The notes beneath the pieces were generated by a model. It searched no databases and had not been told where the DNA came from. It was given only the letters and a program-made list of their open reading frames with translations. From assembly GCA_001771185.1 (NCBI GenBank), contig METB01000001.1, forward strand, positions 375,200 through 439,199: DNA of 64,000 nt. The letters are read 5' to 3'. The position numbers and the translations under genes are program-made. Shown piece after piece: positions 20,068 through 47,880 of the stretch; the stretch's first letter is position 1; the number at the start of each line of letters is the position of its first letter. Source of the DNA: a candidate division Kazan bacterium RIFCSPHIGHO2_01_FULL_44_14. Its GTDB lineage: Bacteria > Patescibacteriota > Kazan-3B-28.

Positions 20068-20069
20068 GA

Positions 20070-20537
20070 CTAGGCCGGTTTGACTACTACTCGCCGGCTA
20101 GGGCCAATCCCAGTGCTCTCGCTCATAACTCCCGCTTCATTGACTAGCGCCAGATGAATTAGCCGGCGTTCAAAAGATGACATAGGCGGAAGATACACTG
20201 CCGTCCCAGTGGCTTTGACCTGACTCGCTGCGTCGCGAGCGATTTGTATCAGCCGCTCACGTTGCTGTTGATGAAATCCGCCAATATTCAAAGATAAACT
20301 TACCGTTTCGATTGGGAAATCACGCCGGACCATTAACCGGAGTAGGTGTTGTAACGCCAACAATGGGTCGGGCGAGGGCGAGATAAAAATTTCATCTCGA
20401 TCGGTTTTCATTTCAACAATTAACACTCCGTCTTCAGTGGCTACAGTAATTTCTGGGACGAGATCAAACGGGGCACATAATTCCCGCAACCGGTCCTGAA
20501 TTTTTTCCTCAATTGGGGTTAGTTTATTGGTCGCCAT
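20070..20537 (-). CDS. jag: Jag/KhpB RNA-binding protein (KH + R3H)
   Basis: C-terminal R3H motif and the conserved jag-yidC-yidD-rnpA-rpmH order. Start set at MATNKL to avoid overlap with yidC. Confidence 0.7.
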   Translation of the reverse strand: MATNKLTPIEEKIQDRLRELCAPFDLVPEITVATEDGVLIVEMKTDRDEIFISPSPDPLLALQHLLRLMVRRDFPIETVSLSLNIGGFHQQQRERLIQIARDAASQVKATGTAVYLPPMSSFERRLIHLALVNEAGVMSESTGIGPSRRVVVKPA

Positions 20538-21324: not shown

Positions 21325-21447
21325 CCCGTTAGAAATAGCGCCCCAGCGTTTTTGCCCTGGCGTTAGCGATATAAATGTAATTTTATAATAACCATCTGTC
21401 TAGTTTGCTTCTGTTCGTCCCGGCAGGTGATTGTTAACGGGATTCAT
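21325..21447. repeat. IR-bounded ~120-bp mini-element (MITE-like): CCCGTTAGAAAT ... (A/T)TT(G/C)TTAACGGG
   Basis: Terminal inverted repeats. Homologous at both ends to the element at 22151..22269 and to the termini of the GIY-YIG element at 37205..37481. Abuts the yidC start codon. Confidence 0.6.
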
Positions 21448-21451
21448 TTTG

Positions 21452-21700
21452 TTAATTGGTTTGTTTATTTAAAACTAGATCAATGCCGGGAGCCGCCCAC
21501 GGATGGCACCGCGAAACCCTAGCCATCCCCAAAAACACCCCGCGGATTACTCCATGCTGTTCGATTGATTGCTTAACATATTCGCTACAGGTTGGCTGAA
21601 GTCGACAAACCCCGGTTGGATGCCACAGTCCCGGCCAACCCTGGTGGGGGACAAGCGTGTTTTGATACAGCGTGATTGCCTTGATCAATAAAGTTTTCAT
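21452..21700 (-). CDS. yidD: Membrane protein insertion efficiency factor YidD
   Basis: CRLQPTCSEY motif and small size. Confidence 0.8.
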   Translation of the reverse strand: MKTLLIKAITLYQNTLVPHQGWPGLWHPTGVCRLQPTCSEYVKQSIEQHGVIRGVFLGMARVSRCHPWAAPGIDLVLNKQTN

Positions 21701-21999
21701 TTGATTTGATTCAGAATGCTGCCCAGTTCCGACTTAATCTGCTGGAAAGATAGGTCGAGGATTGGCTTACGAGCGATAATAATTACCCCGGTGTTAGCCG
21801 ACAGATTTTTCTGGAGAATCACCCTGATCCGACGGCGAATTTTGTTCCTGGCTGCTGCTCGCTTATCCACCTTTTGCCCAGCCACAATCCGAGGCCGGGG
21901 AGCTGGAGTTTGCTTCATATAATACACCGTAAAAGCAGGGCGGTAGATGCGTCTGCCTCGGCGCATCACTTCATCCAACCGATCGGCATCTGTTTTCAT
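21697..21999 (-). CDS. rnpA: RNase P protein component
   Basis: Basic ~100-aa protein (KVDKRAAARNKIRRRIR) located immediately downstream of rpmH. Start set at MKTDAD. Confidence 0.75.
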   Translation of the reverse strand: MKTDADRLDEVMRRGRRIYRPAFTVYYMKQTPAPRPRIVAGQKVDKRAAARNKIRRRIRVILQKNLSANTGVIIIARKPILDLSFQQIKSELGSILNQIK

Positions 22000-22015
22000 G
22001 ATAAACCCAGCGCCG

Positions 22016-22150
22016 TTAGGCGCTGATCCGTTTGCGTCCCTTGGCCCGCCGACGCTGCAACACGGCCCGTCCGTCCTTGGTTGCCATCCGGGCACGAAAG
22101 CCATGGACCCTGGCCCGCTTTATTTTTTTGGGCTGGTAAGTTCTTTTCAT
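22016..22150 (-). CDS. rpmH: 50S ribosomal protein L34
   Basis: Hand translation gives [44 protein letters not shown]. At 44 aa it is below the ORF-track cutoff. Confidence 0.9.
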
Positions 22151-22269
22151 CCCGTTAGAAATAGGAAACCTAGCGTTTCCGTTTCTGGCTTAAAATTATC
22201 CTCGTATATACTTCCTCGTTTATTCTCCCTAATCCTTGTCGACTGTCCCGATAGGTGATTTCTAACGGG
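22151..22269. repeat. IR-bounded ~120-bp mini-element: CCCGTTAGAAAT ... ATTTCTAACGGG
   Basis: Perfect 12-bp terminal IR. Abuts the rpmH start codon. Confidence 0.6.
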
Positions 22270-22280
22270 ATTCATTTGAT

Positions 22281-22545
22281 TTACCTACCTAGTATAGGCA
22301 GATTTATCGGTTCAGGTCAACGAAAGTAGATGAAAGTTCGCTCCATTGTACAAATGTGGATAACTCTGATAAATTGAAGTGTGCCCCGTAGAGAAATTTT
22401 GAAAATGCTGACGCATTGTTTATTGCTCTGAGAGGATTAAAATATTGTTACGGAACACAGTTATCCCCAACGGCTGACGGTGGGGATAACCCACTCAAAA
22501 TTCTTCTAACGGGGTGTGCGACAGGGGAAATTATTGGGGAAAATT
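22281..22545. promoter_or_regulatory. Probable oriC / dnaA promoter region
   Basis: Intergenic region between rpmH and dnaA. One perfect DnaA box (TGTGGATAA) and two near-consensus boxes (TTATCCCCA, TGGGGATAA). Confidence 0.55.
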
Positions 22546-23916
22546 ATGGACGACAAGGAAAAGTTGTGGCGAGCGGTCTTGGGAGAAATTGAAGTCGGCA
22601 TGAGCCCGGCGAATTTCCAGACCTGGTTTAAAAACACCTCCCTTGATGACATCCAAGAAACCAGCGGGATAGTGATAATTCGAGTGCCAAACGACTTTAC
22701 TAAGGGTTGGTTGCAGCAAAAATATCAAAAAGAGATTCACCGCTGTCTCAACAAACACCTTGGCCGGGTGGTAGTAGTCCAATATATAGTTGGAACCAAA
22801 AGAATAGTTCCTCAAGAGGGACGCCCGACCGACGCCCAACTTCCCGCCAACGTAAAACCGATCGAAGAGGTGGTGGTTGAAACCCCGCCAGAGGGACTTA
22901 ACCCCAAACTAACCTTTGAACAGTTTGTGGTGGGGGAGAATAGTAAACTTTGTCATGCCGCCGCCGAATCAGTTGCCAGACAACCGGGGGCCAATTACAA
23001 CCCACTATTTATCTATGGCGGAGTGGGTCTGGGGAAAACCCATCTTTTGCAAGCCATCGGTAACGAGATTCTAAAAAACAATCCCAAAGCCAGGGTCACC
23101 TATATCACTTCTGAACGATTCACTAATGAAATGGTGGAGGCCATCCGGCAAAAAGAGACCAAGGGGTTCAAAGATCGATATCGCCGACTAGATTGTTTAT
23201 TAATCGACGATATCCAATTCGTTTCCGGGAAAGAGCAAACCCAAGAGGAGTTTTTCCATACCTTTAACGCTCTACACAACGCCGGGAAGCAAATCGTGAT
23301 GACTTCCGACCGACCACCGAAAGCCATCCCAGCCCTGGAAGAGCGGCTCCGGTCTCGATTTGGGTGGGGAATGACCGCCGATATTTCCGCTCCGTCCTAT
23401 GAAACCCGGCTGGCAATTCTCCAATCTAAAGCCGCTGCCCAAAAGAAAGAGGTGGCAACCGATATTTTGGAGTATATCGCCAAGTCGGTTAAAAATAATG
23501 TTCGGGAGTTGGAGGGCGCTTTGACCCGAGTTTTGGCCTTTGCTGACCTGAACAATGCCACCCCGACCCTGGATGATGCTAAAAACTTACTCGGGGGGAT
23601 TCTAAATTCCCCAGGTAAAAAAATCGTCAGACCATCAGAAATTATCCGAGCAGTCGCCAACCACTTTAATTTAAAAAAAGAGGATATCTGCGGCCGAAAA
23701 CGGACCAGAGAGGTGGTGGTCCCTAGGCAAATTTTAACTTATTTTTTAAGAGAAGAGTTGGATATGCCCTATGCCCAGATTGGTCATGAGATTGGGGGAA
23801 GGGATCACACTACAATCATCCACGACTATAACAAAATTAAAGAAACAATCATCAATAATGATAGTTTAGACCAAGAAATCACCCAAATAAAAAATAAACT
23901 TTATGTGGTGGATTGA
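22546..23916 (+). CDS. dnaA: Chromosomal replication initiator DnaA
   Basis: Walker A (GGVGLGKTHL), Walker B/sensor region and a C-terminal DNA-binding domain. An alternative GTG start exists at 22516. Confidence 0.9.
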   Translation: MDDKEKLWRAVLGEIEVGMSPANFQTWFKNTSLDDIQETSGIVIIRVPNDFTKGWLQQKYQKEIHRCLNKHLGRVVVVQYIVGTKRIVPQEGRPTDAQLPANVKPIEEVVVETPPEGLNPKLTFEQFVVGENSKLCHAAAESVARQPGANYNPLFIYGGVGLGKTHLLQAIGNEILKNNPKARVTYITSERFTNEMVEAIRQKETKGFKDRYRRLDCLLIDDIQFVSGKEQTQEEFFHTFNALHNAGKQIVMTSDRPPKAIPALEERLRSRFGWGMTADISAPSYETRLAILQSKAAAQKKEVATDILEYIAKSVKNNVRELEGALTRVLAFADLNNATPTLDDAKNLLGGILNSPGKKIVRPSEIIRAVANHFNLKKEDICGRKRTREVVVPRQILTYFLREELDMPYAQIGHEIGGRDHTTIIHDYNKIKETIINNDSLDQEITQIKNKLYVVD

Positions 23917-24078
23917 GTGGGGAGAGACCTGAAATGGGTAAAGTTATCCACAACTTATCCCCAAACTACCAACTATTTACCCCCAACCTGGGTTTCTAGA
24001 AAATCACTCCCACAAACTATAATCTAAGTACTACCCAAAACACACACCTCTATAATCTACTACTAATTTTTTACTCTT

Positions 24079-26335: not shown

Positions 26336-26366
26336 TAGTTTCTTGTGCTCTCCGCTTTTTCATTCC

Positions 26367-26422
26367 GTCATTCCTACGAAGGCAGGAATCTTCCCCATCG
26401 TCATTCTGGCTTGTCCAGAATC
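26367..26422. repeat. Two tandem short palindromes (GTCATTC....GAATCT units)
   Basis: The units resemble the termini of the MITE family at 34524 and 35984. They sit just after the recF stop. Confidence 0.4.
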
Positions 26423-26649
26423 TTTTCAACATTCTTTTGCCACCCCATTTGCTTGCCCAAATATTATTTTGCTACCACTTTGCGTGGTCCTTGCGTGGTA
26501 GCACCGAAAGGACGGCCAGTCGTCGGGGCTATTCAATGGCTAAATCCGTGGGCGCTCTCGCTGAACTCGTCGTCCGTCAGCTGACGGACTCAAACAAGTG
26601 CCTTAAGCGACGGCGATTTTCCAAATGGCTCACGCTCGACTCCGGAGGG

Positions 26650-26700
26650 CGGATGAGGATGGGGTTACTTCTGACAAAGTGGACAGAAGTGAGTGCCGCG
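26650..26700 (-). pseudogene. Divergent duplicate of the mutM 3' end (..GRGTHFCPLCQK stop plus about 10 nt)
   Basis: About 85% nucleotide identity to 27513..27560. Minus-strand translation ends GRGTHFCPLCQK*, against GRGTHYCPICQK* in the real mutM. Confidence 0.55.
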
Positions 26701-26782
26701 ACCACTGTTTGACAAAAATCCGCTCCGGGAGTATGTTTTTGGTGTCTGTAGTTTTTGAACATTACAATCAAGGAGTGGATAG

Positions 26783-27322
26783 ATGATGGACAAGCAAGGA
26801 ACATCAGGGGTTACGTGGTGGATAGGGGTACTAATGGGGGCGGTGTTGGGAGTGGCCGTTGAGGCCCTTGTCTGCATGGTGCCGGTGGTCAATGGACTCC
26901 CGGCCGAAGTCAAAGCCACTGGCGCAGCAGACTCGGCGTTTGTTGGTGCGTTGTTTGGTGGGTGGTTGATTACAATAGGGATTGTGATCCTCCCCTTATT
27001 GGGTTATATCCCCTACTCCCTGACATCTGCCATTCGCTACTACATCGGGATGACGCCGACCGAGCGCCGGGCCTGGCGACTTCGGAGGAAGCTAGTGCGC
27101 GTCGCAGCTCGGAATAAGCGGATATTGCGCGAGGCCCAAGCTCGGGTCGAGATCGCTCGGTTGGAGGAGCAAAAGATCGCTGAACACCAAAGGACGGTCG
27201 ATGAGTTGGTCACCTGTGACCAGGAGGAGTACAAAACGGCGATGCGGATAACTCGGGCCCTTGAGCCGTCGTTAGCGGCAACGCCATCTCCCAAGCGATC
27301 TTCCCAAGCACATTTTCAGTAA
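26783..27322 (+). CDS. Hypothetical membrane protein (2 TM helices plus charged coiled-coil tail)
   Basis: A rho-independent terminator follows it. It lies inside the segment bounded by the mutM 3'-end duplicates. Confidence 0.45.
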   Translation: MMDKQGTSGVTWWIGVLMGAVLGVAVEALVCMVPVVNGLPAEVKATGAADSAFVGALFGGWLITIGIVILPLLGYIPYSLTSAIRYYIGMTPTERRAWRLRRKLVRVAARNKRILREAQARVEIARLEEQKIAEHQRTVDELVTCDQEEYKTAMRITRALEPSLAATPSPKRSSQAHFQ

Positions 27323-27393
27323 ACCCCGGATCTTCCGCGGATCTGTTTGTCGGGGGGTACCCCATCCCCTATCAAACCTTCAGTAAACCTATA

Positions 27394-27419
27394 AACCGCG
27401 GGTCTCCCGCGGTTTTTTT
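27394..27419 (+). terminator. Rho-independent terminator
   Basis: AACCGCGGG tctc CCGCGGTT hairpin followed by TTTTTTTA. Confidence 0.55.
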
Positions 27420-27519
27420 ATATCCGCCGGGTGGCGGATGATTCTATTGAATCATTTCTAGCCTCTCGACTTCGCTCGAGGTCAATGTTGACAAATCGGC
27501 CCCTCGGCTACGCTCGGGG

Positions 27520-28491
27520 TTACTTCTGACAAATTGGGCAATAGTGAGTACCTCGTCCATTGAGGCGGATTTTTTTGATGGTGCTGCCACAGCGTTTGCG
27601 GCAAGGTAGGTCTTTGCGGTCATAAGCCACGAGGTAGTTTTGCATTTGCCCCATTGCGCCCTCGGGGGTGCGGTGGGTGTTGACGCTGGTGCCCATGTAT
27701 TTGATACCTTTTTCTAAAACCTTTTTAATAGCAGAAACGAGTTTGGTGGTGTCGGCTTTGGTGATGGATTTGCCGAGTCGGGTTGGTTTGATGCCGGCGT
27801 AAAAAAGGGCTTCATCGGAATAGATATTGCCAATGCCGGTGACGAGAGATTGGTCTAAAATGATGGTTTTGATGTTGCTCTTGGGGCGACGCTGGATGGC
27901 GGAGTATAAAAAGGCGGGAGTAAAGTTTTTGTCGAACGGCTCCATCCCAAGGTTGGAAAAGAATTTGTCATTTGGGACTTCGGCGGTGGGAGTGAGTTTG
28001 ACCCAGCCGAACCGGCGTTGGTCATTGAAATAGAGATTTCCTTTACTTAACTCAAACCAAACCCGAGTGTGGCGGGACGGCATGGTTTCGATAAAGTTTT
28101 TGTCGGGATGGCCGTAGTTGAGGCGTCCTTTTTCTAATTTGTCACCCCGAACTTGTTTCAGGATCTTGGTTTTAGATGCCGAAACGAGTTCGGCATGACG
28201 AGAGTGGGGGATATAAATCAACTGCCCCGTCATTTTTAGGTGAATCAATAAAGAAAGATCTGACCCGCCCGCACTTCGAGCTGTGGCGGGTTGTTTTGCC
28301 AACGAAACAATAATGCCCTTGCCTCGACGGGTGATGTTTTTAATACTTGCCCCGCGGAGACCTTGTCTCTTTGCGGGGGTGAATCCGAGAGTGCTTCTGG
28401 CCGAGAGAATTTTGACCTGTTTAATTTTCTGCCCGACGATGTGTCGGGAGAGGCCTCTTACTACCGTCTCTACCTCGGGTAACTCTGGCAT
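27520..28491 (-). CDS. mutM: Formamidopyrimidine-DNA glycosylase (Fpg/MutM) with ~50-aa internal insertion
   Basis: MPELPEVE N-terminus with catalytic Pro2/Glu3, H2TH region, and a C-terminal zinc finger CRKRCGSTIKKIRLNGRGTHYCPICQK. Confidence 0.8.
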   Translation of the reverse strand: MPELPEVETVVRGLSRHIVGQKIKQVKILSARSTLGFTPAKRQGLRGASIKNITRRGKGIIVSLAKQPATARSAGGSDLSLLIHLKMTGQLIYIPHSRHAELVSASKTKILKQVRGDKLEKGRLNYGHPDKNFIETMPSRHTRVWFELSKGNLYFNDQRRFGWVKLTPTAEVPNDKFFSNLGMEPFDKNFTPAFLYSAIQRRPKSNIKTIILDQSLVTGIGNIYSDEALFYAGIKPTRLGKSITKADTTKLVSAIKKVLEKGIKYMGTSVNTHRTPEGAMGQMQNYLVAYDRKDLPCRKRCGSTIKKIRLNGRGTHYCPICQK

Positions 28492-34523: not shown

Positions 34524-34630
34524 TGCTGTCATTCTGAACGTAGTGAAGAATCTAGTGATAGCGTTCTGCCACACAGCAGAACTAGATCCTTCGACTCTTC
34601 TGCTGTACAGCAGAATCGCTCAGGATGACA
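34524..34630. repeat. MITE-like ~107-bp element with TGTCATTCTGAACG / CGCTCAGGATGACA terminal IRs
   Basis: Over its internal sequence it is essentially the reverse complement of the element at 35984..36079. Its termini match the IRs of the GIY-YIG element at 40750..41112. Confidence 0.6.
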
Positions 34631-34648
34631 TATTATGATATTAACGGT

Positions 34649-35974
34649 TCATTGTAGCAAACTTTTAATATACTCGCGCTCGTCGTAGGGGATGAGACCG
34701 GTTCGGGTGGCCATCATGGTTTGAGCGCCAAGCGCCAGGAACAAGACGGTGTCGTCGGGTTGGGCTTGTTCAAGCGCAAACCGGACGGCAGCTTTCCGAT
34801 CAACGATGATATAGAGGTTTTCATCTTCGTGAAACTTTTCCGGGGGAATCCCAGGGCGGATTTGATTGATAATGTCCATCGGGTCTTCGTTTCCGGGATC
34901 TTCTTCAGTCAGGATAATTGTGTCAGCAAAGTTGCTGGCAATTTTGCCAAGGACTGGACGTTTAGTTTTATCTCGATCGCCGGCTGACCCGAATACGGCG
35001 ATTAGTTTTTTGGGTGAAAACTCACGGACGGCCGAAAAGACCTTTTCAAAACCGTCTGGGGTGTGGGCATAGTCACAAATCACGGTGAATGGTTGGCCGA
35101 CCTTAATTCGGTCCATCCGGCCAGGGACGCTAGTGACACTCTCAAGCCCTTGTTTGATAATGGGGGTTGGTACTCCCAGAGCAAAGGCGGCGGAAGCGGC
35201 CGCCAAGGCGTTTTGGATATTGAATGTCCCGGGCAAGTGTAGCCGAACCGGGAGAGTTCCGGTTGGAGTCCGCATCTCAAACGAACTACCAGTCGGAGAG
35301 AGTTGAATAGCAGTGGCGGAAAGGGAGCTCTCGCGGGTCTCTAATGGTAGTTCTCTTTCAATGGTGTAATAAAAAGTATGGTCGGAAGGATACTTGGCGA
35401 GATAAGAAGAGGTCGGGTCGTCAAAATTTAACACCATAATTTTCGGGACGCCAGATTGGCGGGGTGAGGCGTATAGTTCGCGAAACAACTTGGCTTTGGC
35501 GTCGCGATACTCTTCAAAGGTTCGGTGATAGTCGAAGTGGTCTTGGGTGAGATTAGTGAAGACGGCTACATCATAGAAAATTCCCCAAGTTCGATGTTGG
35601 TTTAAAGCGTGAGACGAGGTTTCGATTACGGCGTATTTACATTTGGCGTTTACCATCCGGCGAAGCAATTTTTGGAGAGCGAAGGGGGACAGGGTGGTCA
35701 TTTTACTTTCGTTAACCCAACGCTTGTCACCAATCCAGAAGTTGACTGTCGTAGCGAGTCCGACTTTGGCCCCGCTGACGGCTAAAATATTGGCTAACAT
35801 GTTGCAGGTAGTAGTTTTCCCGTTGGTCCCGGTTACTCCAATTACGATTAGTTTTTGAGAGGGGAAGCCGCTTAGAGTTGAAGCCAAAACTCCTCTACCT
35901 TTGTGGTAGGTGTTGTAGAGAAAAGTGTCGGGGGCGAAGGCCCGGCCAAGAATTTTTTTGAGGAGATATTTCAT
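34649..35974 (-). CDS. Mur ligase family protein (MurE/Mpl-like)
   Basis: GVTGTNGKTTT P-loop and Mur ligase middle and C-terminal domains. Start is ambiguous among 35974, 35989 and 36052. Confidence 0.6.
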   Translation of the reverse strand: MKYLLKKILGRAFAPDTFLYNTYHKGRGVLASTLSGFPSQKLIVIGVTGTNGKTTTCNMLANILAVSGAKVGLATTVNFWIGDKRWVNESKMTTLSPFALQKLLRRMVNAKCKYAVIETSSHALNQHRTWGIFYDVAVFTNLTQDHFDYHRTFEEYRDAKAKLFRELYASPRQSGVPKIMVLNFDDPTSSYLAKYPSDHTFYYTIERELPLETRESSLSATAIQLSPTGSSFEMRTPTGTLPVRLHLPGTFNIQNALAAASAAFALGVPTPIIKQGLESVTSVPGRMDRIKVGQPFTVICDYAHTPDGFEKVFSAVREFSPKKLIAVFGSAGDRDKTKRPVLGKIASNFADTIILTEEDPGNEDPMDIINQIRPGIPPEKFHEDENLYIIVDRKAAVRFALEQAQPDDTVLFLALGAQTMMATRTGLIPYDEREYIKSLLQ

Positions 35975-35983
35975 GGTTTGTTT

Positions 35984-36079
35984 TGTCATCCTGAGCGGAA
36001 ACGAAGGATCTAGTTCTGCTGTACAGCAGAACGCTATCGCTAGATTCTTCATCCCGGCAGGCCGGGATTCAGAATGACG
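35984..36079. repeat. MITE-like ~96-bp element, inverted copy of 34524..34630
   Basis: TGTCATCCTGAGCG terminus. Internal ...ctagttctgctgtacagcagaacgctatcgctagattcttca... is the reverse complement of element A. Confidence 0.6.
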
Positions 36080-36088
36080 GGAAAATTA

Positions 36089-37138
36089 TCATCGGAAGCG
36101 ACTGATGAACGAATAGATTCGATAAAGAGAGCGATTCAGGGGCAACTCGAGCGTACCTATATATTCTACTGCTTGTCCGCCAAAGCCCTGCTTGAATCGG
36201 GTGATGCCAGCCCAAGGATGGTCGGGGTCGGGATGAATCCCACCGAGGTCATAAAATCGCATCCCTCGGCGCTTGGCCATGGTCATTCCAAACCAATGTA
36301 GCAGGTAAGGGGCCATCAGATTTTTATAGGTATCGCTGGAGGCCCCATGGACATAGGTGGTAGTATCGCCGAAGGTGACCAAAAAGATACTACCGAGAGG
36401 TGTATCGTTAATAATTTTTTCGTCGACATCAACCAACTTCTCGGCAAACAGTAGATTCCCCATCCCGGCTTGGTGGAGGGTGTGGATTTGAGTGATGTAG
36501 TAATTGGTTGAGTGGGGAATAAAGCCCTGGCGGCGACCGGTCTGGGTGGCTAGTCGAGCGAATTCTTTAATGTCTTCTTCACCAGTGCCGGACTTGATTA
36601 AAACTTCGTGTTTAGTCGCTACGTTAATGTTGTAGCGGGTTTTGGGTTTCATCTGTTGACGCAAAACTTCATCGCTAGTGTCTAATTTTACCAGCTGAAT
36701 GTGGCGGGGCTGGATGTTTTTATAAGGATTCGGGATAAAATTATTTGAGCGGTAAAAGGACAAGGTTAGAGCATCGTGAGCGAAAGCGTTGGGATCGATT
36801 CGAAACAGAATGGTTCGGTTGGTATGGCCCAACCGATTAATTTCTTGCAGTAAGAGCTTAGCGCTCTCTTGTTGGAGTTGAGCTGAAAGCCGTTTATTTA
36901 CGATGCTACCCCGCGGGGAATAGAGGATATACCAACCAAATCCGAGTGATAGTCGGATTACTAGCAGCTGATTGACGATTTCCCCGTCGTGTTCAACGGC
37001 TAACCGCCAGATAGGGTTGCCGAGCTTGAGCTGGAATTCACCCCAGGCCCAACTTTGCAGAAAATGCCGATCGGGTCGGGTGAGTAGGGCAGAGTCCCAA
37101 ATCTCTTGAGCCAGGGCTGACGGGGGAAGTAGTTTCAT
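36089..37138 (-). CDS. FemAB-family peptidoglycan interpeptide bridge aminoacyltransferase
   Basis: N-terminal ...FLQSWAWGEFQ... is a hallmark of the FemAB family. About 350 aa. Confidence 0.7.
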   Translation of the reverse strand: MKLLPPSALAQEIWDSALLTRPDRHFLQSWAWGEFQLKLGNPIWRLAVEHDGEIVNQLLVIRLSLGFGWYILYSPRGSIVNKRLSAQLQQESAKLLLQEINRLGHTNRTILFRIDPNAFAHDALTLSFYRSNNFIPNPYKNIQPRHIQLVKLDTSDEVLRQQMKPKTRYNINVATKHEVLIKSGTGEEDIKEFARLATQTGRRQGFIPHSTNYYITQIHTLHQAGMGNLLFAEKLVDVDEKIINDTPLGSIFLVTFGDTTTYVHGASSDTYKNLMAPYLLHWFGMTMAKRRGMRFYDLGGIHPDPDHPWAGITRFKQGFGGQAVEYIGTLELPLNRSLYRIYSFISRFR

Positions 37139-37204: not shown

Positions 37205-37481
37205 CCCGTTAGAGACCAGATAGTATGTACTATGTCTATATATCGCGTAGTAGTAAGTCGGGCCGGTTGTATACTGGGTTTACTTCCAATCTACGGAAAC
37301 GCCCGATAGTGCATAGTAGTAATATGGGTGGTTACACTTCTGGCCGTGGGCCTTATCGTTTGGTTTACTACGAGGCGTGTAACAACATTGAGGACGCTTT
37401 GGCGCGTGAGTTGTATTTAAAGTCAGGTATGGGTAAGAGATATATAAAAAATCGTATTCGGCGTTTCCTGTCTCTAACGGG
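37205..37481 (+). mobile_element. GIY-YIG element bounded by perfect 12-bp IRs CCCGTTAGAGAC / GTCTCTAACGGG
   Basis: The IRs flank the GIY-YIG ORF. The same IR core bounds the non-coding mini-elements at 21325, 22151, 46451 and 47234. Confidence 0.55.
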
Positions 37482-37485
37482 ATGA
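37225..37485 (+). CDS. GIY-YIG nuclease family protein (COG2827/UPF0213-like)
   Basis: MYYVYISRSSKSGRLYTGFTSNLRKR matches the GIY-YIG core (YVY...G.LY.G.T.NL..R). Two paralogs lie elsewhere in the window. Confidence 0.7.
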   Translation: MYYVYISRSSKSGRLYTGFTSNLRKRPIVHSSNMGGYTSGRGPYRLVYYEACNNIEDALARELYLKSGMGKRYIKNRIRRFLSLTG

Positions 37486-40749: not shown

Positions 40750-41112
40750 TTGTCATCCCGAGCGCAGTCGAGGGATCTGGCTATGAGTGCGAGACAATAC
40801 TATGTTTATATCTTGGCGAACCATAGTCGGGTTTTATATATTGGTGTAACCAATAATTTGACGCGACGGGTATACGAGCATAATCATGATTTAGTCCCGG
40901 GTTTTACACGCAAGTATAAAATTCATCGGTTGGTTTATCAGGAACATTGTGACGACGTTGAAAACGCTATTGCCAGAGAAAAACAGTTGAAAAATTGGAG
41001 ACGAGACAAGAAAGTAGCTTTAATTAACCGAATCAACCCAGAGTGGGAAGATTTGGTAGGTGTAGTAACGGGCTAGATCCCTCGATTCGCTCCGCTCACT
41101 CGGGATGACAAA
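40750..41112 (+). mobile_element. GIY-YIG element bounded by ~29-bp IRs TTGTCATCCCGAGCG..CGAGGGATCT
   Basis: The left IR (40750..40778) and right IR (41075..41112) are reverse complements. The termini match the MITE family at 34524 and 35984. Confidence 0.55.
40783..41076 (+). CDS. GIY-YIG nuclease family protein
   Basis: MSARQYYVYILANHSRVLYIGVTNNLTRRVYEHN matches the GIY-YIG core. Confidence 0.7.
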   Translation: MSARQYYVYILANHSRVLYIGVTNNLTRRVYEHNHDLVPGFTRKYKIHRLVYQEHCDDVENAIAREKQLKNWRRDKKVALINRINPEWEDLVGVVTG

Positions 41113-42082: not shown

Positions 42083-43732
42083 TTATTCGGCAATCACTCG
42101 TAAAAGTTCATCTAGGGTAGTAATCCCGGCAGAAACCTTGGCTATCCCATCTTGGGCCAGAGTGGTCATCCCTTGGCTGACAGCAAGTTGCTTAATCTCG
42201 TTTGAAGATGCCCCGGAAAGAATTTTGGCTTGAATTTCAGGGGTGACTTTAAGCAGTTCGAAAATTCCAATTCGTCCACGGTAGCCGGTACCATTACATT
42301 TATCACAACCTTTGACGAGGGGAACCGTGGCGGGGATTTGAGCATCGGGCAGGATTGATTTGATTTTGGCAATGAAGATTGTGTCTGGCGCAGAAGTAGC
42401 AGTTTTGCAATCGGAGCAGATTTTGCGGACTAACCGTTGAGCAATAATTAACCTAAGAGCGTCGGCGAATAAATTGGGTTTAGCATCCAAGTCCACCAAC
42501 CTCGGGATGGCTCCAGCAGCATCGTTCGTGTGAAGAGTGGAGAGAACTAGGTGGCCGGTCAGCGAAGCATTAACAGCAATGTCAGCGGTTTCCTGATCTC
42601 GGATTTCTCCGACTAAAATAATATCTGGGTCTTGGCGAACGATGGCTCGCAGAGCGTTAGCAAAGTCATAATTTTCTTCTGGGTTAACTTGGGTTTGGGT
42701 GACGCCGTTGAGTTGGTACTCGATTGGGTCCTCGACAGTGATGATTTTAGTGGTAGGAGAGTTGATAGTGTTCAACACAGCGTAGAGAGTGGTGGTTTTC
42801 CCGGAGCCGGTTGGGCCAGTATTCAAAATTAGACCATTGGGTTGGTGAATGGCTTCATCGATAACTTGGCGATCACGTTGGCTTAATCCTAATTCATCTA
42901 GGGAAACAAACTTCCCCGTTTGGGGGAGTAGCCGCATAACCACTGATTCGCCATATTGGGTTGGCAAAACAGAAACTCGGATGTCGTAATGTTCGTCCTC
43001 GGCGGTGATAGAAAAACGGCCGTCTTGAGAACTTTCTTTAATATTTAATTTGAGAGTAGCCAGGAGTTTAATTCGGCTAAGAACGGTTTCGTGGGTGGCT
43101 TTGGGCAGGGTGGCAATGTCTTGGAGGACGCCGTCCAATCGATACCGCAACCGGACATCGGTTTGAGTTGGTTCGATATGAATGTCGGAAGCCCCTAAGC
43201 CAGTGGCTCCAGCAAAAATCAATTCAACCAAATCGCTGGTTGAGGTCTTGGCTAACTTGGTTTGAAAATTTTTCAGGTCGGTAAGTTTGGTAATCGAAGT
43301 CCCGGGTTTGCCGAGATTGATGGAGGTAGTAATTGGGTGCCCATCCTTGGGAGCGAAAGTGTCATAGAGGCCGATGACATAGCGTATTGATGAATCAGAC
43401 ACCAGGACTGGTTGGAACTGATATTCATCCATGGCGTCTAGTTGTTTAAGCGCAGTTAGCGTAGCGGGGGAGTTGGGGTTGGTGAGAGCCAACATAACTT
43501 TAGTCCCGGTTTTTTCAAAAGCAAAAATTTGAGCCGATTCAACTAACTCTTTGGGAACAATCGCAACGGCAGCCGGGTCGGGCTGAAGGTTATTTAAGTT
43601 TCGATATTCTAAATTGAACTGGGCTGCCTGGGTTTTGGTCAGTTCTTCTTCCTTAGTCCGCTGAAGATGCTTCACGGTCTGTTCTAATGGAGCTTGATTG
43701 TCGTCTGGTTGGGGGTTAGATTGATTAGTCAT
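42083..43732 (-). CDS. pilB: Type IV pilus / type II secretion assembly ATPase (PilB/GspE family)
   Basis: Walker A (GPTGSGKTTT), Asp and His boxes, and a tetracysteine CxxC...CDKCNGTGY zinc motif. N-terminal GSPII_E_N-like domain. Start set at MTNQSN. Confidence 0.8.
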   Translation of the reverse strand: MTNQSNPQPDDNQAPLEQTVKHLQRTKEEELTKTQAAQFNLEYRNLNNLQPDPAAVAIVPKELVESAQIFAFEKTGTKVMLALTNPNSPATLTALKQLDAMDEYQFQPVLVSDSSIRYVIGLYDTFAPKDGHPITTSINLGKPGTSITKLTDLKNFQTKLAKTSTSDLVELIFAGATGLGASDIHIEPTQTDVRLRYRLDGVLQDIATLPKATHETVLSRIKLLATLKLNIKESSQDGRFSITAEDEHYDIRVSVLPTQYGESVVMRLLPQTGKFVSLDELGLSQRDRQVIDEAIHQPNGLILNTGPTGSGKTTTLYAVLNTINSPTTKIITVEDPIEYQLNGVTQTQVNPEENYDFANALRAIVRQDPDIILVGEIRDQETADIAVNASLTGHLVLSTLHTNDAAGAIPRLVDLDAKPNLFADALRLIIAQRLVRKICSDCKTATSAPDTIFIAKIKSILPDAQIPATVPLVKGCDKCNGTGYRGRIGIFELLKVTPEIQAKILSGASSNEIKQLAVSQGMTTLAQDGIAKVSAGITTLDELLRVIAE

Positions 43733-43742
43733 GGAGAATAAT

Positions 43743-44657
43743 TTAAGAAGTGGGGAGGGCTTTGCCAAGGACGATGGCTTTATCGAGGGCGCCTTCGATG
43801 GGGAAGTTTTCGAGTCGGACTCGAGCGACATTTTCCCATAGACCGGCCTCTTCTACTGTAGCAGAAAAGGCGAAGGTCAAAGATGCGGTTGGATTATTGT
43901 GGGTAAGCTCGATCCGGTATTCTCCCATCCAGCCACTGCCAATTAATTGGGGCTGACCAGTTTGACCAACCGTGAGGGAATCACTGCCTTGGATGTGATT
44001 GAGTCCGCGTGGGAGTAAATCGTCGACAACGAAAACGGCTACGACTTGGTCGCCACTGGCGCTGTCTGGGACATTGCTTACACTCACGCTAACTTCAATT
44101 TTGAAATCAACCTGGGTTTGGCCATCAGCCAGAGCATCAACATAGTGAGTGTAACTGCCGTCAGGAGCCAACCGAACTTGTTTGGAGATACTGTAAGTAA
44201 ATTTCAATCCGCTAACGGGTTCCTCTTGTCCTGGTTGAGTAACGACTGGTAGGCCTCCGCTATTGAGGTCAGTTGGGTCAGTCCCTAAAATAATTTCAAT
44301 TCCATCAGCGACACCATCGCCGTCAGTGTCGGGGTTGGTTGGGTCGGTTCCGGGATCATCGAGGCCGTTGTAAATGCCGGAGTTATTTTCTTTGGAGTTT
44401 TCAATTCCATCATTGTCGTGGTCGCCGGGGCCGGTAACTTTTGGGCTAACCGCGGGAGTGGTTTCGTCGGGGATGTCTAACTCCCCGGCTGGATTGGTGA
44501 TGTCGGTATCGCGTTCAGCCATGGTCCGAGTACCCCAGCGCTCTTCGATCCCGGAAGTTTCTCTAATAAAAGTCGCCCCCAAGGTTGCGATAATAACCAC
44601 ACTGACAATGGTGGCGCCGGTGACGATGGCAAAACCAGATCCAACCCCGATACGCAT
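43743..44657 (-). CDS. Surface protein: N-terminal TM/pilin-like anchor, Ca-binding TSP3-like Asp repeats, C-terminal DUF11-like domain
   Basis: N-terminal MRIGVGSGFAIVTGATIVSVVIIATLG is hydrophobic (G|F but no Glu at +5). DPTNPDTDGDGVADG repeat. C-terminal ...VAVFVVDDLLPRGLNHIQGSD...GWMGEYRIEL... resembles DUF11. Confidence 0.4.
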   Translation of the reverse strand: MRIGVGSGFAIVTGATIVSVVIIATLGATFIRETSGIEERWGTRTMAERDTDITNPAGELDIPDETTPAVSPKVTGPGDHDNDGIENSKENNSGIYNGLDDPGTDPTNPDTDGDGVADGIEIILGTDPTDLNSGGLPVVTQPGQEEPVSGLKFTYSISKQVRLAPDGSYTHYVDALADGQTQVDFKIEVSVSVSNVPDSASGDQVVAVFVVDDLLPRGLNHIQGSDSLTVGQTGQPQLIGSGWMGEYRIELTHNNPTASLTFAFSATVEEAGLWENVARVRLENFPIEGALDKAIVLGKALPTS

Positions 44658-44659
44658 AA

Positions 44660-46450
44660 TTACTCCCCGGTTAGATTACGCAGTTCGGCTAATTGGGCAG
44701 GGTCAGAAGTGACGATTTTATCTTCCACATAACTAGCCACAACTTTAATGGCGGCATGGTTAGTGCCGGCAAAGAAAAGTCCTTCACCAACTTCGGACTC
44801 GAGCAGTAGGAACTTTTCACCTTGGGTCAAATTGAAGGTCTCGGCGACGACATCAATCGAAGCCGGGGACTGGCGGAAGAGCAGTTGAAGAGACGAGTTG
44901 GCTACCACTGCCTTACCATATTTGGAGCCCAAAAAGTCCTCTACATCCTGGGTAATAGTGGTGAGCCCGAGATAATATTTGCGAGCTCGTTTGGCGATAC
45001 TATATAAGAATTTAGCCGAGTCCTCGTATTGCATTAAAATCCAGGCCTCGTCGATGATGAGCAGACGCTTTTTAATATTGAAGCGGATTTTATTCCAAAT
45101 ATAATTCAACACCACATACATAGCGATGGGGCGAAGGGCGTCCTCCAAATCCCGAATATTGAAGACAACTAAACCGGTGTCTAAATCAAAATTGGTTGGT
45201 TTGTTGAAGATGCCAGCGAAAGTCCCGCGGGTATATTTGCTAAGTCGTTGAGACAAACTTTCGGCTCCCTGCATGTTGTCCAAAACATTTTGCAAGTCCT
45301 CCATCGTCGGCATTGGGTTTTTGTGGGTGGCGGTGTCGTTGGTGATATCTTTGAGGGCGTAGGTTTCATGTAAGGCCTTGTCCATCAAAGCATCTTCTTC
45401 GGGAGTCAAAGTCCCGACCAGCAAATTCATCAGGCCAAGCAAAGTGACGATGGCGGAGCGAAGGACTTTTTCGCCGTCAGCATCGACGCCCAGGTCGGGC
45501 AGGTCAAATGGATTAATCCGTTTGTCGCTGTTGAGCGAGATAGAAATAAATGAACCGCCAATGGCATTGGCCAGGGTCTCGTATTCATTCTCTGGATCGA
45601 TGACAATCGTGTCAGTTCCGAACATCGCACTGCGCAAAACCTCGAGTTTGACCGCATAGGACTTACCTCCACCGGACTTGGCGAAGACAGCCATGTTGGC
45701 ATTTTCTAAATCGAACCGGTCAAATAAAATCAGCGAATTGTTGTGCCGGTTGATACCATACAGAACACCTTTGCCGGTAGTCAGGTCAACCGAAGTGAAG
45801 GGGAAAGTGGTAGCAAGTGAGGAACTGGTCATGTTGCGGACAATATCTAACTCATCTAAGCCCAGTGGCAAAGAAGAATTAAAGCCCTGCTCCATTTGAA
45901 GTAAAGCATGCTTGGTGTAAACTAATTGGCCGCCCAGCGTGGTTTCAATGTGTTGGGTAATCGATTCCAACTCTTCGGGGGTCTTGGCGTAGATGGTGAA
46001 ATACAAACCATAATGGAAGAACCGTTCCATCCCGCGTTGCAGACGGTCACGGAGTTCCTCGGCATCTTGGTAGGCGACTTCCAGTTCGGGGTCGCGAACA
46101 GCGCCCTTTTCTTGGTTGATTCGAAGCGAGGACTCCATTTCGGCCACTTTCCGGCGGAGCGTATTCATAATGGCAGTACTGTCAATCGGGTAGATGTGCA
46201 TCGAAATGTCCAAATCAACATCATAGTTAATGACTGGGTTGAGCCAGTTGGTTTCAATATATTGAGGGTAGGTGAGCACAAACAGGGTTCGGACAAACCG
46301 GCCATTGAGCTCAATGGAATCATTTTTGATTTCCATAGAAGCCGGGGCAACCAAATCACGAATTGAAACTAGGCCAGCTTCAAATTGTTCGACGGCTTTG
46401 CGGGCGTCAGCTTCTTTTTGGGGCTTAGGTTTTCTTTTGAATAGAGCCAT
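44660..46450 (-). CDS. VirB4/TrbE-family type IV secretion ATPase
   Basis: P-loop FAKSGGGKSYAVK and the VirB4-typical Walker B LLIIDEAW. About 600 aa, comparable to the Gram-positive/CPR VirB4 class. Confidence 0.7.
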   Translation of the reverse strand: MALFKRKPKPQKEADARKAVEQFEAGLVSIRDLVAPASMEIKNDSIELNGRFVRTLFVLTYPQYIETNWLNPVINYDVDLDISMHIYPIDSTAIMNTLRRKVAEMESSLRINQEKGAVRDPELEVAYQDAEELRDRLQRGMERFFHYGLYFTIYAKTPEELESITQHIETTLGGQLVYTKHALLQMEQGFNSSLPLGLDELDIVRNMTSSSLATTFPFTSVDLTTGKGVLYGINRHNNSLILFDRFDLENANMAVFAKSGGGKSYAVKLEVLRSAMFGTDTIVIDPENEYETLANAIGGSFISISLNSDKRINPFDLPDLGVDADGEKVLRSAIVTLLGLMNLLVGTLTPEEDALMDKALHETYALKDITNDTATHKNPMPTMEDLQNVLDNMQGAESLSQRLSKYTRGTFAGIFNKPTNFDLDTGLVVFNIRDLEDALRPIAMYVVLNYIWNKIRFNIKKRLLIIDEAWILMQYEDSAKFLYSIAKRARKYYLGLTTITQDVEDFLGSKYGKAVVANSSLQLLFRQSPASIDVVAETFNLTQGEKFLLLESEVGEGLFFAGTNHAAIKVVASYVEDKIVTSDPAQLAELRNLTGE

Positions 46451-46532
46451 CCCGTTAAAAATTTTTACTAATGTATGTGTATTGCATCTTGGTGGTCTGT
46501 TGTTTGTGCCCGTTTTCTAGATTTTTAACGGG
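46451..46532 (-). promoter_or_regulatory. Conserved ~85-nt leader element with 12-bp IR (CCCGTTAAAAAT / ATTTTTAACGGG), copy 1
   Basis: About 85% identical to 47234..47320. Ends ...TAACGGG directly at the ATG of the VirB4 gene. Confidence 0.5.
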
Positions 46533-46540
46533 ACAGGTAG

Positions 46541-47233
46541 TTATTGTCCTGGGTTGGTATCCTTAATATGCTGGATGACTGAAACATCGACATTACTGAC
46601 CGAAAATAGTTTTTGTCTCCGGGCGGTATCAGTATTGTAGGTAGTATAGAACAGCTCAATCAATTCTTGAGTGTTGAGTTGGACATTATGCAACCCCAGC
46701 CCAGCCAGACCAGACGAGGCCAAGGAAGTCCGTTCCATCAACTTGGTTTTAACTTCCTCAAATCGGCCACCCAATGAAACCGGCCCACTCTTTTTACCAA
46801 AAAGTCCAGCCAGAAATCCGCCGGTAGGGAGTTCGACGCCGGTATCGTAGGGGATAACTAGATAGAAGGTTTTACTCATGATGTTAGCGACACCGATGAG
46901 TTCGCGGACGAAGTTGGTGTACTCGGTAGTTTGAGTTCGAAGCAGGTCATTGGTTTGTTGACGGCTAAGGGTGTCGAGTTGGGCCAAGTAATTGTCCAAA
47001 TCCAACATTCGGGACTGGACAACGATTTGGATTGGGAATCCTAGGCCGTTGAGAAAGGCCTGGTACTGCTGCATCATCGCTTCTTGTTCGTCCCTGGATT
47101 TGAGGTTGAAGTTGATGGCGTTGACCATCAATACAGTCCGAAATCCGCCGGTCTTTAAAATCACTATCCCATCGCGGACTTCCTTGATAGGTAGGTACTT
47201 TTGAGTACTGTTGGGCTGCTTTGATTTAGCCAT
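46541..47233 (-). CDS. VirB4 N-terminal-domain paralog (no ATPase domain)
   Basis: LPIKEVRDGIVILKTGGFRTVLMVNAINF... parallels the VirB4 N-terminus SIRDLVAPASMEIKNDSIELNGRFVRTLFVLTYP... The same leader element precedes it. Confidence 0.4.
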   Translation of the reverse strand: MAKSKQPNSTQKYLPIKEVRDGIVILKTGGFRTVLMVNAINFNLKSRDEQEAMMQQYQAFLNGLGFPIQIVVQSRMLDLDNYLAQLDTLSRQQTNDLLRTQTTEYTNFVRELIGVANIMSKTFYLVIPYDTGVELPTGGFLAGLFGKKSGPVSLGGRFEEVKTKLMERTSLASSGLAGLGLHNVQLNTQELIELFYTTYNTDTARRQKLFSVSNVDVSVIQHIKDTNPGQ

Positions 47234-47320
47234 CTCGTTAAAATTTTTTGTCAGTGTAAGTGTATTGCATCTTGGTGGTTTGTTAGTTTTGCCCGTTTTC
47301 TTGATTCTCTTGGGACAGGT
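47234..47320 (-). promoter_or_regulatory. Conserved ~85-nt leader element, copy 2 (IR degenerated)
   Basis: Shares ...gtgtattgcatcttggtgg.ttgtt.gtt.tgcccgttttct... with copy 1. Ends TAACGAG directly at the ATG. Confidence 0.5.
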
Positions 47321-47322
47321 AA

Positions 47323-47871
47323 TTATTCGTTTTCTGCTAAGACATCTTCTACATCCAGACCGGCTTCGTTAACGAGAGAGGGATTCTCATTTAAATTATT
47401 TACTTGAGTTGTCACCGCCTCCTGATCGTCCGGCTTAATTGTACCACCCGCATCTAAGACCCGAGACAGCTTTTCGAGCTGACTTTGCAATTCTTTGCCT
47501 TGTTTGCGTTCTTGAAGTTCACTTTTAGTGTCTTTGATATCGGTGGCTGACACTTTAATTGTTTCTACCAACTCGCGGGGTTCTTTATGCCACACTCGTT
47601 GTTTATTGGCCAACCAAAACTTGAACAAGTTGACGATAAAGACACCAAAGGGCTGTCCGTTAACTTTGCTAAAAGCAAAGGCAATGCTCAAAGACCCGGC
47701 TACTAAACTGATTAGGACAAACTCGATGCCATAGAGATACTGCATCGCGTAATACTGGTAAGCGATGAAGACGATTGAGGCGCCAGCCAAGACATAAAGG
47801 AATTGCTTTAGGGTCAATGGGCCGACGAGCCGGTCTTCACGGGTAACGTCTTGTGGGATTTTAGCAGGCAT
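47323..47871 (-). CDS. Small two-TM membrane protein, possible VirB3/PrgI-like T4SS component
   Basis: Two adjacent hydrophobic helices followed by a charged tail. Called mainly on position between the VirB6-like and VirB4-like genes; homology was not verified. Confidence 0.3.
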   Translation of the reverse strand: MPAKIPQDVTREDRLVGPLTLKQFLYVLAGASIVFIAYQYYAMQYLYGIEFVLISLVAGSLSIAFAFSKVNGQPFGVFIVNLFKFWLANKQRVWHKEPRELVETIKVSATDIKDTKSELQERKQGKELQSQLEKLSRVLDAGGTIKPDDQEAVTTQVNNLNENPSLVNEAGLDVEDVLAENE

Positions 47872-47880
47872 AAGATTTGA

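Follow-up and report, generated by a model that had tools for sequence, protein, structure and literature searches.

The genome of a candidate division Kazan bacterium, a member of the Candidate Phyla Radiation (CPR), encodes a 97-aa nuclease that very probably belongs to the Ssn family, and the ~30-nt hairpin units found around its gene and elsewhere in the window (the whole 64-kb stretch of DNA analysed here) are very probably its cognate repeats. Systems consisting of a nuclease and its repeats were already described in 2013 and 2025, making this a new example rather than a new kind of mobile element. The first-pass annotation had called the system previously undescribed, which does not hold: the repeats are CGTC-tagged REPs (PMC3733652) and their pairing with a nuclease is that of Ssn/SRM (PMC11893778). 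What is new is the CPR host, a GA-type hairpin, and the existence of relatives differing in their cassette and dimer content.

The GIY-YIG cassette spans 40751..41110 and reads TGTCATCCCGAGCG..GGGATCT, followed by the ORF and an inverted copy ending in ..GGGATGACA at 41110. Its left hairpin unit (40751..40780, plus strand; TGTCATCCCGAGCGCAGTCGAGGGATCTGG) precedes the ssn-like gene (40783..41076, plus strand), and the CTAG tail of the right unit (41073..41110, minus strand) overlaps the stop codon of that gene. The encoded protein is a single-domain GIY-YIG nuclease, in which PF01541 (4e-15) covers residues 5-77. There is no other independent domain; the sole further match, to the related GIY-YIG-like T5orf172 model, falls on that same region. 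Homologs of this protein are 92-130 aa long. Searches with the protein gave no match in NCBIfam, only UPF0213 proteins (E 0.0017) in the PDB, and no meaningful assignment in PADLOC and PHROGs. Phages rarely carry such a gene: 2.9 million viral contigs contain about 17 full-length homologs.

A tblastn search of a 7.3-Gb database with the 97-aa protein retrieved an N. gonorrhoeae gene at E 3e-15. This gene encodes 94 aa, is embedded among 9 canonical NTS copies, and its product is 47% identical to the 97-aa protein over 88 aa (pairwise E 9e-25); from its size and context, we infer that it is the ortholog of N. meningitidis SsnA. The alignment takes in the C-terminal REKQLKxW..W.DL region of the family, and the catalytic positions Y9, Y19-G21, R28/R29, H33, E66 and N85, unchanged across 26 homologs, line up with the gonococcal protein. 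The catalytic residues of N. meningitidis SsnA are Y6, Y17 and E64, and the 97-aa protein falls within the E < 1e-10 to Neisseria SsnA that defines Ssn homologs (PMC11893778). Ssn nucleases are single-domain GIY-YIG proteins flanked by hairpins (Chenal et al. 2025, Nat Commun 16:2388, PMC11893778). They bind these hairpins only as ssDNA and cut that strand just upstream of them, with neither dsDNA nor RNA being a substrate; the identity of the loop is dispensable and loop extensions are tolerated (PMC11893778). The characterised homolog is an ssDNA nuclease that limits transformation, which is the only function tested (PMC11893778).

The hairpin units share an architecture of about 30 nt: a (T/C)GTC tag, a stem beginning with AT, a loop that varies, and an ATCT tail. 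The unpaired CGTC/TGTC tag, the AT-initial stem and a short 3′ tail are present in all 10 window units, the tail being CTA, CTT or CTG versus the CCA consensus of CGTC-tagged REPs. The first-pass annotation had proposed that the GIY-YIG element shares its terminus with two non-coding elements (A and B, see below), and had set enrichment above chance as a test beforehand. With at most one mismatch, TGTCATYCYGARCG has 5 matches in 64 kb against 0.08 expected, namely at both ends of A, at one end of B and at both ends of the cassette, the remaining B end being a CGTC-tagged variant. The longer pattern GTCATYCYGARC..GARGRATC has 3 matches in the 64-kb window against 0.00 expected. These common termini bear out that the non-coding elements and the cassette form one system. 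A second, different GIY-YIG gene (37225..37485) is bounded by 12-bp terminal inverted repeats of its own and is likewise absent from the relatives.

A, B and the cassette together have six units, all of a form we designate GA-type: a 5-bp stem (ATTCT, ATCCT or ATCCC, differing between A, B and the cassette), then GA..GA, then an inner segment of 11 to 37 nt (a loop example is GCGNAGC). Folded singly as DNA, these units reach -0.8 to -3.1 kcal/mol (z about 0), no better than shuffled sequences. Short-type units lie elsewhere. The hairpins that had been noticed after recF are two tandem units with CGTC tags (26366..26424, plus strand), one at 26366..26392 (6-bp stem, 8-nt loop) and one at 26399..26424 (7-bp stem, 5-nt loop). 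A unit dimer (28140..28200, minus strand; ..SRHAELVSASKTKILKQVRGDK..) lies in frame inside fpg, where the unit at 28176 has an 8-bp stem and a 5-nt loop; the same dimer is found in fpg of one relative (L018). Just beyond the window, an aminoacyl-tRNA synthetase gene contains another dimer. Rfam searches of the whole window at the gathering threshold, and of A and the cassette at permissive E-values, returned tRNAs and noise only. Reading CUGA..UGAAGA as a K-turn or C/D box was dropped, since the helices are symmetric without a 3-nt bulge and SsnA does not bind RNA.

One dimer subfamily is represented twice, as elements A and B, both in gaps between the genes of the femAB-murE-SIMPL operon. Element A (34527..34630) consists of two hairpin units that form a 104-bp dimer with outward tags, between the murE stop and the start of a SIMPL-family gene. 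Its left unit (34527..34555, plus strand) has a TGTC tag, the stem ATTCT/AGAAT, GA..GA and a CTAG tail; a spacer hairpin follows (34564..34581; TTCTGCCACACAGCAGAA), and then the right unit (34582..34630, minus strand) with the stem ATCCT/AGGAT and a loop that holds the 18-nt palindrome TTCTGCTGTACAGCAGAA (34598..34615). Element B (35984..36079) is a 96-bp dimer, inverted with respect to A, in the gap that separates the femAB stop from the murE start. It consists of a left unit (35984..36013, plus strand; stem ATCCT/AGGAT, loop GAGCGGAAACGA), a spacer palindrome (36014..36031), again TTCTGCTGTACAGCAGAA, and a right unit (36040..36079, minus strand) with a CGTC tag, the stem ATTCT/AGAAT and an extra hairpin, ATCCCGGCCTGCCGGGAT, nested in its loop.

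That A and B are mutual reverse complements, as first noticed, is upheld by aligning A end to end with B in reverse complement: column identity is 80%, and a 50-nt core, which includes spacer sequence, reaches 92%. Since A and B have this non-hairpin spacer in common, the dimer must have been copied as one piece, in a REPIN-like manner. The two elements differ mainly by two indels (11 and 19 nt), each a small hairpin inside a unit loop, and such nested hairpins fit with the loop extensions tolerated in Ssn/SRM (PMC11893778). As ssDNA, element A folds into one long hairpin (-23.1 kcal/mol, z -4.5) and element B reaches -22.5 kcal/mol (z -4.7). A third, degenerate copy of the A/B type lies ~0.8 kb outside the window start (L125, 14311..14455). 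Direct repeats indicative of target-site duplication were found beside neither A nor B nor the cassette.

The inverted pair does flank a Mur ligase gene, as the first-pass annotation stated; more precisely, this is murE (34649..35974, minus strand; 441 aa), which, like all its CPR relatives, is devoid of the N-terminal Mur ligase domain. A longer ORF up to 36052 is read-through of element B, not murE proper. Truncation of the murE N-terminus by element B was considered and rejected, since all CPR homologs are about 445 aa. The genes femAB, murE and SIMPL are co-oriented, with A and B inside that transcription unit. The suggestion that A and B mediate inversion or excision of murE was abandoned, as the order and orientation of these genes are the same in every contig examined, with or without the elements.

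Beyond the window, the association of repeats with the nuclease was followed in 80 metagenomic loci encoding homologs with 53-67% identity to the 97-aa protein. A unit lies upstream of the gene in 45 of the 80 loci, an inverted unit downstream in 55, and units on both sides in 39. The nearest unit faces outward in 38/55 upstream and 44/52 downstream cases. Pairing was counted from the tags rather than with a covariance model, because loops are variable and the count is simpler and less circular: a perfect 5-bp complement lies within 60 nt of 113 of the 143 gene-adjacent TGTCAT tags, where chance would give about 6%. The paired tags use 13 different stems, which amounts to covariation. The published SRM pattern, HGTCWYN(0-2)YYVSBRHN(0-5)WNVSBRGN(0-2)RNCYNB, finds nothing in the window (0.26 matches expected), and canonical NTS-type repeats matching it occur at only 5/80 homolog loci, so the units here are a divergent form; those in the window agree with the pattern in tag and tail, but not in stem and loop.

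Syntenic contigs were obtained via exact-protein look-ups of MurE homologs, as a MurE scan of genome contigs gave only 39-41% relatives, which are useless for synteny. In the syntenic relatives (81-83% MurE identity), the presence/absence polymorphism that the first-pass annotation had called for was found: element A is missing from the murE-SIMPL gap in L018 and L021, and L018, L019 and L020 lack the whole ssn cassette at its syntenic position. The site of B is occupied by a different, shorter dimer, and the cassette gap of L018 holds a degenerate solo unit without the gene. No clean empty site for A, B or the cassette was found in the relatives, whose intergenic spacers are too diverged for this.

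These features place the system closest to Ssn/SRM, with which it shares a ~94-97-aa single-domain GIY-YIG protein, inverted hairpins framing the gene on both sides, the (C/T)GTCAT tag and ATC(T/C) tail, and many more copies scattered in the genome with variable, extendable loops. It differs in its host, as CPR bacteria are absent from Chenal et al. 2025, in its dominant GA-type hairpin, missed by the published pattern, and in its outward, TIR-like tags, whereas the nearest N. gonorrhoeae repeats face inward. The mismatch with the SRM pattern, the weak folds of single GA-type units and the inward-facing gonococcal repeats count against an Ssn/SRM identity. The nuclease activity of the 97-aa protein is predicted by homology.

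CGTC/TGTC-tagged REPs, which include Neisseria dRS3 and Rickettsia RPE-4/RPE-6, have stems starting with AT, dimers with structured spacers and intragenic copies, and no transposase or dedicated enzyme was known for them in 2013 (Di Nocera et al. 2013, BMC Genomics 14:522, PMC3733652). The units here resemble them in the unpaired tag, the AT-initial stem and the 3-nt tail, in occurring mostly as inverted dimers with conserved spacers containing small stem-loops (A and B), and in having in-frame copies within DNA-repair genes (fpg). Stems of 8-9 bp and loops of 4-5 nt characterise the published families; only the short-type units come near, with the fpg pair fitting and the recF pair having 6-7-bp stems, whereas A, B and the cassette are GA-type with loops of 11 to 37 nt. 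With RAYT/REP systems, REPINs and IS200/IS605 TnpA, the system shares a small nuclease gene between inverted hairpins that are also dispersed as inverted dimers, the predicted recognition of the hairpin in ssDNA, and the dimer as the copied unit. Here, the enzyme is a GIY-YIG protein rather than an HUH/Y1 (IS200-like) transposase, without a covalent tyrosine intermediate for strand transfer, and the tag is CGTC rather than the GTAG of RAYT/REPINs. Like classical MITEs (Correia elements, Nezha), the dimers are about 100 bp, bounded by terminal inverted repeats, intergenic, and present or absent between relatives; unlike those, A, B and the cassette show no target-site duplication, their ends are autonomous hairpins rather than plain DDE transposase binding sites, and the parent gene is not a known transposase.

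By analogy with the characterised enzymes, the 97-aa protein would recognise a unit only in the folded, single-stranded form of the strand that carries it, and would then cut that strand a few nt 5′ of the tag, a step we infer by homology with the enzymes of Neisseria, N. elongata, N. wadsworthii and Wolbachia. A and B are each two tag-outward units around a spacer holding a small palindrome, and the cassette is laid out like them, its gene standing where they have the spacer. Dimer and spacer were copied together, as in REPINs, and copies could spread through Ssn-dependent mobilisation or recombination. Mobilisation of the elements by the nuclease is plausible. The cellular role may match that in Neisseria, i.e. 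cutting incoming ssDNA near repeats.

It is possible, though doubtful, that the cassette is an autonomous transposon with the nuclease as its transposase, and that A and B are internally deleted MITEs moved in trans. Such an origin would account for the IS-like cassette with outward tags (the dominant layout among homologs), the identical end architecture of MITEs and cassette down to the CTAG tails, the presence or absence of the cassette and element A among relatives, and the duplication of dimer plus spacer; the Ssn authors, who noted the IS-like repeat-gene-repeat layout, raised the same idea (PMC11893778). Against this, there is neither a target-site duplication nor a clean empty site, and GIY-YIG enzymes cut DNA by hydrolysis, with none known to rejoin it. 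The copies in this genome have diverged in their stems (ATTCT, ATCCT, ATCCC), unlike a recent burst, the intragenic copies are old and common to L018, and the only tested Ssn function is restriction of transforming ssDNA.

The reverse order of events, in which the dimers came first and a free-standing GIY-YIG homing endonuclease inserted into the middle of one, making the MITE-like elements targets rather than derivatives, is unlikely. The gene does sit exactly at the position of the A/B spacer, between two CTAG/CTGG tails, the repeats far outnumber the genes, and the L018 gap retains its degenerate unit without a gene. The characterised enzyme, however, cuts ssDNA outside the hairpin rather than at a dimer centre, the protein lacks the DNA-binding domain typical of GIY-YIG homing enzymes, and no window dimer except the cassette has ATCCC stems at both ends. 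We consider it very improbable that the units are REP-like terminators, attenuators or mRNA stabilisers in operons, with an incidental link to the nuclease. Orientation-specific association with the gene in 45-55 of 80 loci across phyla argues against this, as do the lack of RNA binding by SsnA (PMC11893778), the lack of an Rfam family match, and the in-frame units inside fpg and the aminoacyl-tRNA synthetase gene. The location of A and B within a co-oriented transcription unit and of other units after recF would suit a role as RNA, as is argued for many REPs by Di Nocera et al. (PMC3733652).

Under the assignment to Ssn/SRM, nuclease and repeats form a pair whose identity and biochemistry are already published. 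Most metagenomic relatives of the 97-aa protein carry the GA-type hairpin, which escapes the published search pattern, so present Ssn/SRM censuses probably undercount. The cassette and dimer differences between syntenic genomes are the kind of evidence needed for testing the proposed mobility. More speculatively, Ssn may here be an active, REPIN-like replicator and not a domesticated one, the nuclease copying GA-type dimers with their spacer, as well as the cassette, to new sites. If so, the differences from the 81-83% relatives (the cassette and element A gained or lost, the site of B flipped in orientation and remodelled) would provide the first evidence from genome comparison that Ssn/SRM elements are mobile, and the GA-type hairpin would be a new and more widespread specificity class missed by the published motif. 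CPR organisms are thought to be heavily dependent on DNA uptake. With Ssn/SRM extending to the Candidate Phyla Radiation, an ssDNA nuclease could matter there.

Two inverted hairpin-repeat dimers, element A (34527..34630) and element B (35984..36079), lie on either side of murE (34649..35974, minus strand, 441 aa). As the first-pass annotation had claimed for a ~100-bp inverted pair around a Mur ligase gene, A aligns end to end with the reverse complement of B, at 80% column identity and at 92% across a 50-nt core. The alignment gaps (11 nt and 19 nt) are non-random, since each coincides with a small additional hairpin within the loop of a unit. The termini said to be common to A, B and a GIY-YIG element were also recovered: allowing one mismatch, the 14-mer TGTCATYCYGARCG has five matches in the 64-kb window (0.08 expected): two at the ends of A, two at the ends of the GIY-YIG cassette (40751..41110) and the fifth at one end of B. 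The remaining end of B carries a CGTC version of the tag, and a longer pattern covering the entire hairpin gives three matches in the window (0.00 expected). The shared feature is real and far above chance expectation. Folded whole as single-stranded DNA, A and B each give one long hairpin, at -23.1 and -22.5 kcal/mol respectively (z ~-4.6). A longer murE ORF up to 36052 was rejected, as it merely reads through element B (peptide ..FPLRMTK..); the short MurE N-terminus is typical of the lineage.

Each element end is one ~30-nt unit, consisting of an unpaired (T/C)GTC tag, a stem starting with AT, a loop, the complementary stem with its AT end, and a CT(A/T/G) tail. Two forms occur in the window. 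Short units are near-perfect hairpins, such as CGTC-ATTCTGG-CTTGT-CCAGAAT-CTT after recF, where hairpins had already been reported, and CGTC-ATGCCGAA-CTCGT-TTCGGCAT-CTA within fpg. The other form, which we designated GA-type, is used by all six units in the two elements and the cassette: a 5-bp stem (ATTCT, ATCCT or ATCCC) is followed by GA on both strands (a potential tandem G.A pair) and a variable inner segment of 11 to 37 nt. Two units have a complete additional hairpin within this segment: B has ATCCCGGCCTGCCGGGAT, and A has an 18-nt palindrome, TTCTGCTGTACAGCAGAA, which recurs exactly or nearly so as the spacer of both elements. From this arrangement, A and B are dimers with outward tags: unit(+), CTAG, spacer hairpin, CTAG, unit(-). 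The cassette is built likewise, except that a 97-aa ORF replaces the spacer, and the right-hand CTAG overlaps the ORF's stop codon. As single-stranded DNA, single GA-type units fold weakly (z ~0), and short units and the fpg dimer fold strongly. The palindrome, TTCTG(C/T)TGTACAGCAGAA, is found at 34598..34615, 36014..36031 and 34564..34581, and at 14327..14344 of L125, a contig of the same organism reaching past the window start. Occurring as dimer spacer and nested in loops at separate loci, it looks as if it were an independent small insertion module.

The cassette ORF (40783..41076) encodes a GIY-YIG domain alone (97 aa; PF01541, 4e-15), and the same sequence is already deposited, annotated as hypothetical, for a groundwater candidate division Kazan bacterium. 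Relatives number over 6,600, at 55-70% identity and spread across many phyla; in 26 homologs the GIY, YIG, Arg, His, Glu and Asn positions are invariant. A strict detector, requiring GTCA and a perfect 5-bp stem, was run on 80 metagenomic homolog loci and found an upstream sense-orientation unit in 45, a downstream inverted unit in 55 and both in 39. To avoid circularity, a second test was anchored on the tag only: for 113 of 143 outward TGTCAT tags beside the genes (79%), a perfect 5-bp complement lies no more than 60 nt away (~6% by chance). The stem co-varies, with 13 different sequences among these 113 units, of which 83 are GA-type and 10 of a CG..CG type. Upstream, the gene-nearest unit points outward in 38 of 55 cases, and downstream in 44 of 52. 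Hand inspection of loci from another CPR, a Chloroflexota, a high-GC and a Phycisphaerae genome gave the same picture with more stem variants.

This architecture had been taken for a previously undescribed mobile-element system, a claim that is overtaken by the literature. CGTC-tagged REPs, with a CGTC or TGTC tag, an AT-starting stem and a 3-nt tail, occur mainly as inverted dimers, often with small stem-loops in their spacers, and also within genes, notably repair genes; Neisseria dRS3 and Rickettsia RPE-4 and RPE-6 are members, and no dedicated transposase was known as of 2013 (Di Nocera et al. 2013, PMC3733652). The missing enzyme is SsnA, a 94-aa single-domain GIY-YIG nuclease (CDD cd10448) whose gene has a repeat on both sides, for which the general name is SRM and the Neisseria name NTS (Chenal et al. 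2025, PMC11893778). Binding by SsnA requires the hairpin to be single-stranded DNA, and cleavage falls on one strand, a few nucleotides upstream; the enzyme is inactive on double-stranded DNA and RNA, tolerates loop changes and extensions, and in N. meningitidis reduces transformation by repeat-carrying DNA (PMC11893778). The same authors likened repeat-gene-repeat to an insertion sequence and suggested domestication, without demonstrating mobility or mentioning CPR (PMC11893778); our literature search on Ssn/SRM found no later paper.

In a plasmid collection, tblastn matched two 2.17-Mb N. gonorrhoeae records (NZ_CP119140.1 and NZ_CP119142.1), both of them whole chromosomes that bear plasmid labels. 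The matched gene (94 aa) lies among nine canonical NTS copies. Over 88 aa its product and the window protein share 47% identity (E 9e-25), C-terminal REKQLKxW..W.DL stretch included, so that by homology the window protein is a putative Ssn family member. The flanking hairpins likewise agree with published SRMs in tag, tail and architecture, but the published degenerate SRM pattern has no match in the window (0.26 expected), so the units represent a divergent form of the motif; that pattern flanks only 5 of the 80 homolog loci, all NTS-like. The feature fits best as a CPR representative of the Ssn nuclease/CGTC-REP system.

Syntenic contigs of relatives (L018 to L021) were found through exact-protein look-ups of MurE homologs (83% identity in L018, L019 and L020, 81% in L021). 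A presence/absence check, proposed with the original claim, showed that the cassette, element A and a second GIY-YIG gene are missing from the syntenic gaps. Between leuS and the next gene, covered by L018-L020, the gap is 214 nt against 562 nt in the window, with a degenerate solo unit in place of the cassette; the murE-SIMPL gap is devoid of A, and the tsaD-femAB gap of the second gene. The femAB-murE gap (window 35975..36090; L018 9929..10000; L021 1637..1728) holds a 52-nt dimer of short-type units, shorter than B, which lies in the opposite orientation to B along with its ~10-nt flank GGGAAATTA. Recombination between units would leave flanks in place, yet this flank travels with the ATTCT unit, pointing either to the entire spacer having flipped in place or to insertions that arose independently. 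Shared spacer sequence in A and B shows that duplication acted on the dimer as a whole; ~0.8 kb outside the window start there is a third relative of A, in degenerate form. Against active transposition stand the considerable differences among units and the age of the fpg dimer, shared with L018; neither a target-site duplication nor a clean empty site is visible for A, B or the cassette between window and relatives. The suggestion that A and B might invert or excise murE found no sign in its favor: in all contigs of this organism and its relatives, femAB, murE and the SIMPL-family gene point the same way.

Units also reside within genes. A short-type dimer (28140..28200) is inserted in frame in fpg (27520..28491, minus strand), encoding ..SRHAELVSASKTKILKQVRGDK..; L018 fpg carries the same insertion with differently decayed tags and stems, marking it as old and tolerated, much like Rickettsia palindromic elements. 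Just past the window end, on contig L126 of the same organism, a dimer lies in frame in a class I aminoacyl-tRNA synthetase gene (20966..21033; ..RHPEFISGSKVEMLNQVQHDE..) and a single unit at the 3' end of a phosphoglucomutase-family gene (15034..15057). The ~1.2-kb recF-fpg interval (26336..27519) contains tandem units and a 179-aa ORF (26783..27322) with no match in Pfam or NCBIfam; in L018, recF directly abuts fpg.

The second GIY-YIG gene (37225..37485, 86 aa) has 12-bp inverted repeats of its own, CCCGTTAGAGAC, on either side (37205..37482) and ends exactly at the tsaD start codon. Its product is nearer UPF0213 BH0048 than SsnA and lacks the C-terminal REKQLKxW..W.DL stretch; the empty site in L018 and L021 reads GTGAGCAAATTATAGCATAGAAAG, and a further subfamily member is found at L126 19406..19669. 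Near copies of its repeat, CCCGTTAGAAAT (21325..21336, 22151..22162, 22258..22269), abut the yidC and rpmH start codons, with one upstream of dnaA, and could be solo ends of this family or a common leader motif. GC skew changes sign at ~20000..24000, and rpmH-rnpA-yidC diverge from dnaA-dnaN-recF, so a replication origin probably lies inside the window; all bona fide window units fall within 20 kb to the right of this region. Adjoining the cassette is a cluster (42083..50661) of PilB/T2SSE-type ATPase, VirB4/TraG-like ATPase, TraC-like, PrgI-like and T4SS pilin genes, of possible relevance to how this CPR organism takes up or transfers DNA.

Interest now rests on the CPR host lineage, on the GA-type hairpin, which current search patterns fail to pick up, and on differences among relatives that make the question of mobility testable.
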